NCBI GenBank assembly: GCA_016765095.1
Contig: JAESQQ010000719.1
Coordinates: 5,647-69,646 of the forward strand
Length of the DNA: 64,000 bases
Reading direction: 5' to 3'
Source of the DNA: Planctomycetota bacterium
Lineage (GTDB): Bacteria > Planctomycetota > J058
Of this stretch, positions 29,115-47,660 are shown one piece after another; the stretch's first letter is position 1; the number at the start of each line of letters is the position of its first letter. The notes below the pieces were generated by a model that worked only from the letters and a program-made list of their open reading frames with translations, had not been told where the DNA came from and did no database searches. Both the position numbers and the translations under genes were made by a program.

Positions 29115-30308
29115 ATGGCTCACATTGCGCTCGTCGGGAAGGCGACTCCTGCGCAGGAAGCCTACGCAGTCTTGCTGACGAACCGAGGTCACAGAGTCAT
29201 TGCGATCGCGACCCTCAAGGAGGCCGAGAGCGCAGTCGACGCGGGTCCAGACCTGCTCGTCATAGACTCCGACCTCCCAGACGGCGGCGCGCTCGAGCTC
29301 ACCTCTCGGATCCGGCGCTCTCTCGAGCCAGGCCAGCTCCCCATCATCTTTCTGACCGGCGGCGCAGAAGACGACTACCGGCGAGCCTACGCCGCAGGAG
29401 CCACCGACTGCCTCGATCGCGGCGTGCCCCCCCCTGTCTTCCTCGCAAAGGTCACCCACCTCCTAAACCGCGCCGCACCTGCCCGTGCGCCCTTGCCAAA
29501 GGTTGGTGAGCTGCTCTTCGGACGCTACGAACTCATAGGTTTCCTCGGCCAGGGCAGCTACGGAGCGGTCTTCGACGCGACCGACCAGGTCAAGAACAGG
29601 AGGGTCGCGCTCAAGGTGATGGTCGGAGGCGACCCCGAGTCGAGGGACCGATTCGTCCGTGAGACCTACACCTTGGCCGGGGTCAAGACGCCTCACGTCG
29701 CCGAGATCCTCGGCTTCGGACACACGAGTGGGCTCCTCTATTGCGCCATGGAGTGTGTAGACGGGGTCAGTGTGTCCGAGAAGGTCCAACGTCACGGGCC
29801 CTGCACCGAGAGGGAGCTGTTGGACTTCCTCCGGGCCATGGTCCAGGCGCTGGCGGCCCTCGAGAGGAGCGGCTTCGTTCACCGGGACATCAAGCCGACC
29901 AACGTCGTCCTTCGCGACGGCCGCTATGACTCGCCAGTCTTGGTTGACTTTGGTCTCGCAAAGGGCGCCTTCGACAGCGGGGTCACATCCCCGAGCATGC
30001 TCATGGGGACTCCTGGATACATAGCACCCGAGATCCTGGATGGACCCGCCAACGCCTGCAGTGACGTGTTCTCCCTGGGCCAAGTCGCGCTCTTCGTCGC
30101 CTGGGGTTGGGAGGCCTTCCCCAGGGAGGCCGGGATCCACCTCGTGCTGGCCATGGAGAAGCAACCAACCCCCGTCCCCGACCACCTGTCCGAGCGCATG
30201 CAGCGGATCCTCCGCCAGATGACGGATCCCGCGCCGAGCCGACGACTCAAGTCAGCGCGAGAGCTCCAAGCTGCACTCAAGCCGGTTAGAGGGTCGCGAG
30301 GCCGCTGA
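29115..30308 (+). CDS. Pseudo-receiver / Ser-Thr protein kinase fusion
   Basis: The receiver-like N-terminus lacks the acidic pair and the Lys (IALVGKATPAQE...LLVIDSDLPDGG). The kinase is intact (LGQGSYGAVF, VALKVM, HRDIKPTNVVL, DFGLAK, GTPGYIAPE). Its 3' end overlaps the convergent HK gene by about 23 bp. Confidence 0.85.
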   Translation: MAHIALVGKATPAQEAYAVLLTNRGHRVIAIATLKEAESAVDAGPDLLVIDSDLPDGGALELTSRIRRSLEPGQLPIIFLTGGAEDDYRRAYAAGATDCLDRGVPPPVFLAKVTHLLNRAAPARAPLPKVGELLFGRYELIGFLGQGSYGAVFDATDQVKNRRVALKVMVGGDPESRDRFVRETYTLAGVKTPHVAEILGFGHTSGLLYCAMECVDGVSVSEKVQRHGPCTERELLDFLRAMVQALAALERSGFVHRDIKPTNVVLRDGRYDSPVLVDFGLAKGAFDSGVTSPSMLMGTPGYIAPEILDGPANACSDVFSLGQVALFVAWGWEAFPREAGIHLVLAMEKQPTPVPDHLSERMQRILRQMTDPAPSRRLKSARELQAALKPVRGSRGR

Positions 30309-44892: not shown

Positions 44893-47660
44893 CAGAGAGG
44901 CTCCCCGAAGGCTCCCATATCACCCAGAAGATCCTGATCGTGGACGACAGGTCGGAGAACCTGTTCGCCCTCAGAAAGGTCCTTAGAGCCACGGGCACAG
45001 AGGTCATCGAGGCGAGCAGCGGGAACGACGCGCTCAAGGCCGTGTTGCGCCACGACTTCTCGTTGGCCATCTTGGACGTGCAGATGCCGGACATGGACGG
45101 CTACGAGCTCGCCGAGTTGATTCGCGGCGAAGCCCGCACCGCCCTGCTTCCCATCATCTTCCTGTCCGCCGTCTACACGGACGAGACCCACGTGTTTCGG
45201 GGGTACGAGTCGGGGGCCGTGGACTTCATAGTCAAGCCGTACAACCAGGTCCACCTCCTGTGCAAAGTGCGTGTCTTCCTCGACTTGGACCGCGAGAAGG
45301 TCACATCGATTCGAGCCAGTGAGGAGCGACTGCGCGGATTCATGAACTCGGCCGCCGACGGCTTCGTTCTCTTTGACTCCGACCTTCGGCTCCGCGAGAT
45401 CAACCCTCCTTTCTTGCAGCTCTTTCCTGACGAGACCACGAGGCAAGACTTGCTGGGGAAAACGCCCGAGGGCCTCAAGCCCGTGTTCGGGGAGGGAGAC
45501 CAGGAACTGCTCCACAGAGTGCTGGAAACGGGCGAGGCGAAGTTGGTCGAGGATCTCGTGGTTTCAGCCGAGCGGGGAGAGCGGCACCTCGTCCTCAAAA
45601 TCTTTCGGGTGGGCCTCGGCCTAGGCGTGATCGGCACGGACATCACGGAACGCAAGCGCGCTGAGGTCGAGATTCGCCAGCTCAACGAGCAGCTCGAGGA
45701 GCGAGTCCAAGAGCGCACTCAGGAGCTCGCGGGCGCGAACAGGGAGTTGAGACTGGCCAAGGCAGCAGCGGAGGCGGCCAGTCTGGCCAAGTCGGAGTTC
45801 CTCGCCAACATGAGCCACGAGATCCGAACGCCAATGACTGGCGTGCTCGGAATGCTCGATCTGATTCAGAGCACCGAACTCGGGGAACGCCAGCGAGGCT
45901 ACGTGGACATGGCGCGGAGCTCGGCCGACCTCCTGCTGGTCGTGATCAACGACATCCTCGATTTCTCCAAGATCGAGGCCGGCAAGCTGGAGCTCGAGGA
46001 GGTCGACTTCGACCTCCGCGGCGTGGTAGAGAACGCCACGCTTCCCCTGGCCCAGCGCGCGGCCGCCCGGGGCGTGGAGTTGGCCTGCTTCATACCCACA
46101 GACGTGCCAACGGCTCTGCGGGGGGATCCTGTCCGGCTGGCCCAGGTCCTGACCAACTTGCTGGGGAACGCTGTCAAGTTCACGCAGGCAGGTGAAGTCG
46201 TCGTTGAGGTGCACGCCACGAGCGCGGAGGACGCCCTAGTTGACCTCCGGTTCGAGGTCCGGGACACGGGTGTCGGGATCGACCCGGCGGCGCTCAAGGA
46301 GCTGTTCCAGCCCTTCACGCAGGCAGACAGCTCGACCTCGCGCCGCTTCGGCGGAACTGGACTGGGGCTGACGATTTCCCGGCGGCTGGTCGAACTCATG
46401 GGTGGCGAGATCGGGGTCGAGAGCGTGCGGGGGGAGGGCTCGACCTTCTGGTTTACGTGCGCTTTCGCTCCAGGGAAGCCCCAACCCCTCCCCCGCGGTG
46501 ACCTCAGCGGACGGCGCATGCTCAGCGTGGACGATAGCGCCACCAATCGTCAGATCATGGAGCACTACCTCGCAGGCTGGGGAGTCCGCGCCAGCACAGC
46601 TGCTTCGGGGCCCGAGGCGTTGCGGCTACTGCTCGACGCCCAGGCCCAGGCTGACCCCTTTGAAGTCGCTCTCCTCGATCAGAAGATGCCTGGCATGGAT
46701 GGGCTCTCTCTTGCCAGGGCGATCCGAGGTGAGCAGAGCCTCGCGGAGATCCAGCTCGTCCTCCTGAGCTCGCTTGGACTGGCCCAGGAAGAGTCCAAGG
46801 GGCTGGGGATCGTCGCCCACCTCGTCAAGCCCATTCGCCGTGAACAACTTCATGAGCGCCTCCAGCGGGCGGTCGGGGGCCGAGAACCTCCCGCTGCTCT
46901 CCTCCCCCGCCAGACTCTCTTGCTCCGGGGGCATGTGCTCCTCGTCGACGACATGCTGGTCAACCAGGTGGTTGGCCAGGAGATGCTGCGGCAGCTCGGT
47001 CTGGGAGTGGAGGTCGCCAACGGCGGGCGGGAGGCGATTCGTCGAATTGAGGGGCGCCGCTACGACGTGGTGCTCATGGACTGCCAAATGCCAGACCTGG
47101 ATGGGTTCGAGACGACCCGGCGAATCCGAGGGTCGGAGGCCGAACGGGGTCGAGGCGACCCCCTACCCATCGTCGCGATCACGGCCAACGCGCTGGAAGG
47201 GGATCGGGAGGTCTGTTTGGAGGCGGGCATGGACGGATACATCTCCAAACCCTTCGGCCGAGCGGCACTCTCCGCGGAGCTAGCCCGCTGGCTTCCTCAG
47301 CAGGAGCGCCAATCACAGGGGAACGGCAAGGAAGATCGGCCGCTCCTGGATTTCGAGAAACTCGACGCACTTCGCCAGACGCTGGGGCCTAGGTTCGAGA
47401 CCGTCCTCGGCCACTTTAGAGTGGAGGGCGCTGACCTGATCGTGTCGCTCCGAGCCGCCGCGACTGCAGGCGACACGAAGGCTATGGCGCACGGCGCTCA
47501 CGCCCTTAAGGGCGTAGCAGGAAACCTGTTCGCTTCGGCGCTGGTCCGTCTCTCTCGGGACCTGGAACACCAGGCGCGCGCTGGCGTGGTCGAGGCTCCT
47601 GAGCCCCTCGTCGAGCAGATCGCTAGCGCGCTCGAGCAAGTCCTCGAGGCCCTCTCCTGA
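44889..47660 (+). CDS. Hybrid histidine kinase: REC, PAS, HisKA, HATPase, REC, REC, HPt
   Basis: GTG start overlapping the cheR stop (GTGA). The core and the C-terminal REC-REC-HPt block are about 70% identical at protein level to the C-terminal two-thirds of 30286..33813 (for example [19 protein letters not shown] and [16 protein letters not shown]). Confidence 0.9.

Follow-up and report, generated by a model that had tools for sequence, protein, structure and literature searches.

Three neighbouring hybrid histidine kinase genes, here termed A, D and E, lie within 17 kb of each other in a 64-kb window of a single metagenome scaffold (contig JAESQQ010000719.1), the window being the whole stretch of DNA analysed in the current study and the stretch to which all counts given for it refer. 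Our analysis makes it likely that two blocks were copied among these three genes at some time in the distant past, with the conserved H-box of the kinase as the common junction. The first block would consist of a FixL-type heme-PAS domain together with a 32-residue coiled-coil linker, as present in A and D, while the second would represent a complete phosphorelay output (HisKA-HATPase-REC-REC-HPt), as present in A and E. An earlier note on this DNA had described its kinases as assembled from shuffled paralogous blocks, a description that is substantiated by a sharp three-way breakpoint in the H-box, by trees of the receiver (REC) and PAS domains and by comparison with an orthologous gene cluster. 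The genes and segments that carry the argument are listed below by window coordinates, domain assignments having been made using Pfam with curated cutoffs.

30286..33813, minus strand: gene A, 1175 amino acid (aa) residues, HPt-REC-REC-hemePAS-HisKA-HATPase-REC-REC-HPt, a three-block mosaic (Pfam).
39845..44071, plus strand: gene D, 4HB_MCP/CHASE3-like sensor, GAF, hemePAS, HisKA-HATPase and three REC (Pfam).
44889-47660, plus strand: gene E, 923 aa, REC-PAS-HK-REC-REC-HPt, where HK denotes the histidine kinase (Pfam).
30286..32169, minus strand: core of A (aa 549-1175), HisKA-HATPase-REC-REC-HPt, the block in common with E (alignment).
45786..47660, plus strand: core of E (aa 300-923), the paralogous phosphorelay core (alignment, repeats and REC tree).
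44889..45785, plus strand: N-terminus of E (aa 1-299), REC, non-heme PAS and linker, outside the duplication (alignment and REC tree).
32155..32607, minus strand: PAS block of A (aa 403-553), FixL-type heme-PAS and 32-residue linker, in common with D (blastn and repeat search).
41594..42049, plus strand: PAS block of D (aa 609-760), heme-PAS and linker, in common with A (structure search and alignment).
32152..32172, minus strand: mosaic junction at codons 548-554 of A, inside the H-box, where A turns from D-like to E-like (three-way codon alignment).

Concerning the output block, residues 549-1175 of A and 300-923 of E were aligned over 635 codons without large gaps at 72% amino acid and 74.5% nucleotide identity, which bears out the value of approximately 70% that had been noted for this core, while the kinase catalytic part reaches 84% amino acid identity. 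All three peptides previously quoted as shared stretches were found in both proteins. At the DNA level, blastn returned 74.8% identity over 1919 nucleotides (nt; E=0) and an independent repeat search recovered collinear inverted arms at 30298-32218 and 45737-47654 (70-83% identity, 13.5 kb apart); the match is thus collinear over ~1.9 kb and is not confined to short motifs. Other kinase pairs in the window share 24-38% identity, the best match to A outside its own contig among 5.8 billion proteins does not exceed 47%, the best external match to the E core within the retrieved set is ~52% identical, and a scan of 185,579 species, a set that does not include the source genome, revealed no genome above 49% identity. 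Since neither the protein nor the genome searches produced a closer relative and the other pairs in the window remain at 24-38%, the A/E relationship is specific and lineage-restricted.

Phylogenetic and codon-level data point in the same direction. A tree of all 21 receivers of the window recovers A-REC3/E-REC2 and A-REC4/E-REC3 as sister pairs, each with 100% bootstrap support, and these domain-level trees, together with the 99% value obtained for the PAS domains of A and D (see below), support the sharing of blocks. A codon-sharing test, in which the use of the same codon at identical residues was compared with the expectation from window codon usage, gave 58% observed against 46% expected for the A/E core (z=5.7) and 61% against 47% for the A/D PAS block (z=2.9), while all other kinase pairs, including those of the neighbouring kinase B with A or D, fell between -0.5 and 1.5. 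The DD...D...(S/T)...K residues are complete in all four receivers of A and all three of E, and the C-terminal HPt domain of each protein carries an H-A-L-K-G motif; helix 1 of the DHp domain, taken as 25 residues from the start of the H-box, and the surroundings of the HPt phospho-histidine are identical in A and E.

The similarity does not cover almost all of E, as had been claimed in the earlier note, but its last 68%. The N-terminal REC and PAS of E are ~28% identical to A, which equals background, and the E PAS lacks the proximal histidine when aligned to FixL. The possibility that A and E are full-length duplicates with diverged N-termini was considered and rejected, since A-REC2 and E-REC1 exhibit 28% identity, a background value, with no codon signal, and since E REC1 is orthologous to that of a kinase in the CheR cluster discussed below.

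With regard to the sensor block, residues 403-553 of A and 609-760 of D are 58-61% identical, blastn yielding 73.5% identity over 487 nt, and the block was also recovered as an inverted repeat by the repeat search. The linker between the PAS domain and the H-box histidine measures 32 residues in both proteins, which suggests that sensor and linker moved as a single unit and that the geometry of PAS-to-DHp coupling would thereby have been preserved. A tree of 51 FixL-like PAS domains places A and D as sisters (99% bootstrap), with no particular grouping for B. Searches against solved structures matched FixL heme domains to the PAS of D at E=1e-34 and to that of A at 4e-28, followed by DosP, with PDB 4gcz (YF1, a LOV-FixL chimera) among the matches of the D PAS.

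Alignment to BjFixL revealed that the proximal histidine (H200) is kept in the PAS domains of A, D and B. Both pocket arginines (R206 and R220) are retained in D, while A possesses a glycine at the Arg206 position and retains R220 (positions ~32380-32405, aa ~470-478), with Tyr203 replaced by His and Tyr207 by Phe; the top PDB match of the A PAS, 2cmn, carries an Ala at the Arg206 position (ISAY instead of ISRY). The B domain keeps R206 and has its second arginine at 219, one residue off the R220 register. All three are accordingly classed as FixL-type heme-PAS domains that are predicted to bind heme. The nearest external PAS is 52% identical to that of A and 61% identical to that of D, a difference which indicates that the A copy is the faster-evolving one. 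Best matches of the B PAS are external and there is no synonymous-site signal between it and A or D; its z values of -0.5 to 1.5 and its lack of grouping with A and D in the tree make it a family member only and not a specific paralogue. The notion that the PAS domains of A, B and D are clear paralogues consequently holds for A and D but, for B, at family level only, and the motif HDGYLARY..., which had been quoted as common to the three, is complete in D alone.

The two blocks meet in A within a few codons. On the left of the junction, nucleotide sites at which A agrees with one partner only favour D over E by 149 to 46, whereas on the right they favour E over D by 97 to 18, and upstream of A residue ~540 identity to E falls from 90% to ~27% per 30-residue window. 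The longest exact A/E match, of 41 nt (32129-32169 in A, 45786-45826 in E), overlaps the junction, and the longest exact matches to D, of 17-18 nt, also fall in the H-box interval. The H-box, which reads SHE(I/L)RTP, is therefore the site of longest DNA identity among these kinase genes and, for this reason, the likely crossover site. The H-box encoded by the 41-nt tract is also conserved in D and in every orthologue of D, and the H-boxes of D and E constitute direct repeats (81% identity over 90 nt, 3751 nt apart).

Upstream of its PAS domain, A contains a third block that is separate from both D and E.

32629..33813, minus strand: N-terminal cassette of A (aa 1-395), HPt-REC-REC, the third block (Pfam and homologue search).

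At 34.3 bits the N-terminal HPt clears its cutoff of 24.6, and it displays an HxLAGSAG motif with the phospho-site H-N-L-A-G. No paralogue of residues 1-395 was detected in the window, while over 150 cluster representatives match this segment end to end at their N-termini (33-48% identity, E<1e-64), many otherwise unrelated proteins reaching 42-48% across the full 395 residues; HPt-REC-REC is followed in them by GGDEF, by PAS-HK-REC or by nothing. The proteins concerned (P0121-P0266) measure ~550 aa with GGDEF, 900-1300 aa with PAS-HK-REC and ~400 aa where the cassette stands alone. HPt-REC-REC is thus a widespread N-terminal cassette and apparently an undescribed one, literature searches having returned nothing directly relevant and no paper under that name. 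The four receivers of A and its HPt domains at both termini, as originally noted, were confirmed by Pfam. The accompanying view that this architecture is unusual even for phosphorelay kinases is correct in so far as it is uncommon, two HPt domains being present in 5 of 159 cassette proteins and two HPt domains with four receivers in 4, but it is overstated given that the cassette is widespread and that three representatives other than A combine two HPt domains with four receivers, two of which (P0163 and P0247) match A collinearly along almost the entire protein at ~33-34% identity. Vertical inheritance of the A core together with the HPt-REC-REC...HPt architecture was also considered; it is not supported, as the collinear homologues rank only 56th-79th for the core.

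Both shared blocks are of considerable age. For the A/E core, synonymous divergence per site (dS) is 0.82 and nonsynonymous divergence (dN) 0.19, with 59% identity at third positions, while the A/D PAS block gave a dS of 0.73 and a dN of 0.24; dN/dS is ~0.23-0.33 for the two blocks. The proportion of synonymous differences (pS) is 0.47-0.50 for both, as against ~0.58-0.62 at saturation in unrelated comparisons. The lowest dS, 0.48-0.56, is found in the HisKA part. The longest identical A/E runs measure 41, 29 and 23 nt, and no 40-codon window exceeds 85% nucleotide identity. With dS at ~0.7-0.8 and synonymous sites near saturation, the duplication is not recent, and the copies are old paralogues under purifying selection, not as the recent segmental duplication that had been supposed. 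No homology was found past the stop codons of A and E, nor any larger duplicated segment. Recombination between the copies, which had also been envisaged, is conceivable in view of the identical runs of 41, 29 and 23 nt but should be rare, as is to be expected at 25% divergence and with no near-identical tract present at ~75% DNA identity; should it occur, the inverted arrangement of the copies implies that a crossover would invert the intervening segment and swap the two C-terminal cores.

The history of D and E may be approached through the gene that separates them.

44068..44892, plus strand: CheR methyltransferase, 274 aa, between D and E (Pfam).

CheR homologues with 43-61% identity are widespread, and the comparison loci in which they were found (L082-L156) are metagenome contigs with few taxonomic labels, spanning several phyla. 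In ~27 loci with enough flanking sequence a conserved cluster is present, [4HB_MCP-HAMP-GAF-HK-REC3]-CheR-CheB-[REC-led kinase]-REC, with which the window shares orthologous D, CheR and first receiver of E in the same order. The window differs from it in that a heme-PAS takes the place of part of the coiled coil of D, CheB is missing and the core of E is replaced. The N-terminus and core of D are 46-57% identical to the cluster orthologues, whereas its heme-PAS (aa 625-733, 41642-41968) is inserted with respect to every D orthologue that was examined, with a gap opposite it in L082 and L084, and no heme-PAS was observed in any D-like gene of the ~27 loci. All D-like kinases (L082-L155) possess, between GAF and an invariant sequence box, a coiled coil rich in Glu and Gln that is conserved as one or two units of (Q)QEEL..(A/T)NEELEE(Q/K/R); in D it occupies aa ~590-617 (~41540-41620) and the second unit is replaced by the heme-PAS. 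Given the adjoining CheR and CheB genes, it is possible that this coiled coil serves as a methylation helix.

The first REC of E is orthologous to that of the downstream REC-led kinase (45-72% in ~25 loci, 37% in L150), and E aligns with a cluster orthologue at 57% identity over aa 13-178, a stretch limited to the first REC and the beginning of the PAS. The kinase cores of E orthologues belong to other types, and the E core is best seen as a replacement relative to them. CheB is present in every comparison locus extending past CheR, while the window yielded no tblastn match to it and the CheR stop codon overlaps the E start. Since D carries a PAS insertion and E a core that differs from that of its orthologues, D and E are themselves mosaics when set against their orthologues, and D-CheR-E is a derived, remodelled copy of the conserved cluster. 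No MCP receptor or CheA/CheW homologue was seen in the cluster loci, the window's own proteins having been the only queries, and literature searches turned up no description of a kinase-CheR-CheB cluster.

Regarding the direction in which the blocks travelled, we tentatively favour an A-like gene as the donor, with a confidence that falls just short of even: such a gene would have supplied D with its PAS and linker and E with its core. As orthologues of D and E are without the blocks and collinear homologues of A exist elsewhere, this direction is the most parsimonious. It is also conceivable, if less likely, that A is itself a chimera, produced when D-CheR-E or parts thereof were duplicated in inverted orientation and a deletion or crossover between the two H-boxes fused the D PAS-linker to the E core; D would then already have possessed the heme-PAS and E the REC-REC-HPt core, the HPt-REC-REC cassette being added upstream. 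A single event would in that case yield both the exact abutment at the H-box and the similar ages of the blocks (dS 0.73 and 0.82), and the direct H-box repeats of D and E, the inverted position of A beside the D-CheR-E operon and the more derived state of the A PAS are all consistent with it. Such a chimera would, however, call for two extra acquisitions from unknown donors (PAS into D, core into E), the orthologues being without either block, and for a further fusion to the N-terminal cassette. What probability these two accounts leave falls to an unseen third copy as the source. Several points weigh against the explanation as a whole. The core of A is 33-40% identical to the cores of its collinear homologues but 44-47% identical to other TorS-like cores, and being no closer to the former it raises the possibility that the architecture of A was also assembled. 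Faster evolution of the A PAS is compatible with transfer in either direction, further paralogues may be located elsewhere in a genome of which the window is a single 64-kb portion of one scaffold, and the scan of 185,579 species contained no close relative genome with which to date the events. Furthermore, with similarity ending at the stop codons, the 3' junction of a core transfer would need to be illegitimate, and heme binding, response to oxygen and shared downstream partners are deduced from sequence.

The remaining explanations would dispense with an old exchange of blocks altogether. A recent segmental duplication, its copies still kept alike by gene conversion and liable to recombine or invert, might be suspected from the inverted repeats 13.5 kb apart, the single 41-nt identical tract at the H-box and the reduced dS of 0.48-0.56 in the HisKA part; with a DNA identity of 74.5%, a dS of 0.82, 59% identity at third positions and no window above 85%, and with the 41-nt tract encoding an invariant H-box that is conserved in D and all its orthologues, we regard it as very improbable. 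Marginally less credible still is an artefact in which a chimeric metagenome contig joined different strains or collapsed repeats. Metagenomic origin of the scaffold lends this some initial plausibility, yet an assembler would presumably not merge or wrongly join copies that differ at 25% of positions, none of the genes is interrupted or out of frame, start and stop codons overlap inside the operons, the content of guanine and cytosine (G+C) is uniform (~65% across the region), and the same gene order is present in the ENA scaffold (68,425 bp) and the NCBI contig (71,157 bp). The least probable explanation is the absence of any specific relationship, the similarity being that between any HisKA/REC/HPt or PAS domains. 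The H-box, the REC DD...D...K residues and the HPt HxxKG motif are indeed generic, and the B PAS and E N-terminus match at family level only; for the B PAS and the REC1/PAS of E such a reading holds, while for A/E and A/D it is refuted by the 72% identity of the A/E core over 625 aa (as against no more than ~52% externally), by the 24-38% of other kinase pairs in the window, by the codon z of 5.7 and by bootstrap values of 99-100%. We thus return to the copying of two blocks among A, D and E as the account that best accommodates these data.

The hybrid histidine kinases of this region are arranged as two divergent operons, of which C-B-RR-A (RR being a response regulator gene) occupies the minus strand and D-CheR-E the plus strand. 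All five kinases exceed the Pfam cutoffs for HisKA and HATPase_c.

33806..34186, minus strand: RR, single-domain response regulator located between B and A (Pfam).
34183-36996, minus strand: gene B, MASE3-PAS-HK-REC-REC (Pfam).
35677..36027, minus strand: PAS of gene B, FixL family (Pfam and tree).
37030..39546, minus strand: gene C, REC-PAS-GAF-HK-REC, which heads the operon C-B-RR-A (Pfam).

The start and stop codons of RR overlap the neighbouring genes, on which basis B-RR-A is considered to form one operon, and CheR is translationally coupled on both sides through an ATGA overlap with D and a GTGA overlap with E. The start of D was placed at Met26 (39845) on the strength of a 1408-aa gene call in L001. 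A protein identical to that of gene A is on public record as 'MAG: response regulator [Planctomycetes bacterium]', and an identical 274-aa CheR is similarly recorded under 'MAG: Planctomycetes bacterium'. An exact look-up of the 923-aa translation of E (from its first start codon) in the gene-position collection, which does include A and CheR of this contig, gave no match, and the deposited gene call probably uses another start. In L082 and L084 an HTH-REC regulator, a KaiB-like gene and a PAS-(GAF)-HK-REC kinase precede the D-like gene on the same strand; gene C is 32-39% identical to this kinase and is likewise located upstream of D, but on the opposite strand. The divergent intergenic region between C and D contains, at 39678-39721, a perfect tandem duplication of the 22-nt unit AATCATCCGGACGGATGAGTGA, each copy of which holds the palindrome TCATCCG-GA-CGGATGA, and this repeat pair is a candidate operator for both kinase operons.

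Three fusions of a receiver to a Ser/Thr protein kinase are encoded on the plus strand (27681-29111, 29115-30308 and 57775-59019); their receivers cluster in the REC tree at 81% bootstrap, and two of the three converge on the 3' end of gene A. An STK-FHA protein, STK being the Ser/Thr kinase, is encoded at 60131-61825. The window as a whole contains many such REC-STK fusions, sigma-54 activators, a DUF4388 receiver protein and at least six PAS kinases, a gene content that would seem more typical of Myxococcota than of the 'Planctomycetes' label of the record.

In functional terms, the distribution of the blocks would imply that the two kinase chassis of A and D are both driven by a gas or redox signal sensed through heme. 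The identity of DHp helix 1 and of the residues around the HPt phospho-histidine suggests that A and E probably pass phosphate to the same downstream receiver(s), thereby integrating different inputs. A more far-reaching interpretation, which we advance as speculative and rather doubtful, would combine these elements: the H-box would act as a natural splice site for the exchange of heme-PAS and phosphorelay output among adjacent kinases, and a widespread receptor-less CheR/CheB-kinase system, whose QQEEL/NEELEE coiled coil may be a methylation substrate, would have been rewired into a network of several kinases, responsive to oxygen or redox state, with A and E feeding a single receiver, CheB having been lost and part of the helix replaced by the PAS domain. 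In either case the locus represents a natural domain-swap series, with one heme-PAS and linker on two chassis (A and D) and one core behind two inputs (A and E), and as such it is useful for testing how sensors couple to kinases, for studying insulation versus cross-talk among paralogous hybrid kinases and for designing chimeric sensors. The remodelled kinase-CheR-CheB-kinase cluster may be the more open question.

A number of known systems offer points of comparison. Engineered swaps such as YF1 reportedly place a PAS-type sensor on another kinase chassis while keeping the coiled-coil linker; the A/D swap, unlike YF1, is a natural one with its crossover downstream of the linker and inside the H-box, sensor and linker being exchanged as a unit. 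The PAS domains of D, A and B match those of FixL from Bradyrhizobium and Sinorhizobium (PDB 1dp6 and 1d06) and keep the proximal histidine, although no FixJ partner was identified for the window proteins. A, D and B were also examined as candidate whole-protein FixL and rejected (NF041777, 158-172 bits against a cutoff of 850).

TorS, BarA and ArcB have the same domain order as the A/E core, whose phospho-acceptor motifs are present, and they are its best NCBIfam matches, TorS scoring 485.6 for A and 509.4 for E (cutoff 676.5) and BarA 469.8 and 488.5 (cutoff 890); no NCBIfam equivalog cutoff was reached by any kinase of the window. In contrast to these proteins, A and E possess two receivers before the HPt domain and lie in the cytoplasm, where REC and PAS domains take the place of periplasmic sensors, while A has the extra N-terminal HPt-REC-REC.

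The closest parallel is one of process: lineage-specific expansion of kinases, especially of hybrid kinases, usually comes with shuffling of N-terminal domains (Alm et al. 2006, PMC1630713). A and E conform to this pattern, as each of the two cores has its closest relative in the other, within one genome, while the upstream domains differ (HPt-REC-REC-hemePAS in A, REC-PAS in E). The present locus goes beyond that pattern in that (i) its junctions could be traced to within a few H-box codons; (ii) A has its sensor block in common with D and its output block in common with E; and (iii) no more than 17 kb holds all three genes, which belong to two divergent operons. We conclude that A, D and E constitute a well-resolved new example of a known process and not a new kind of system.

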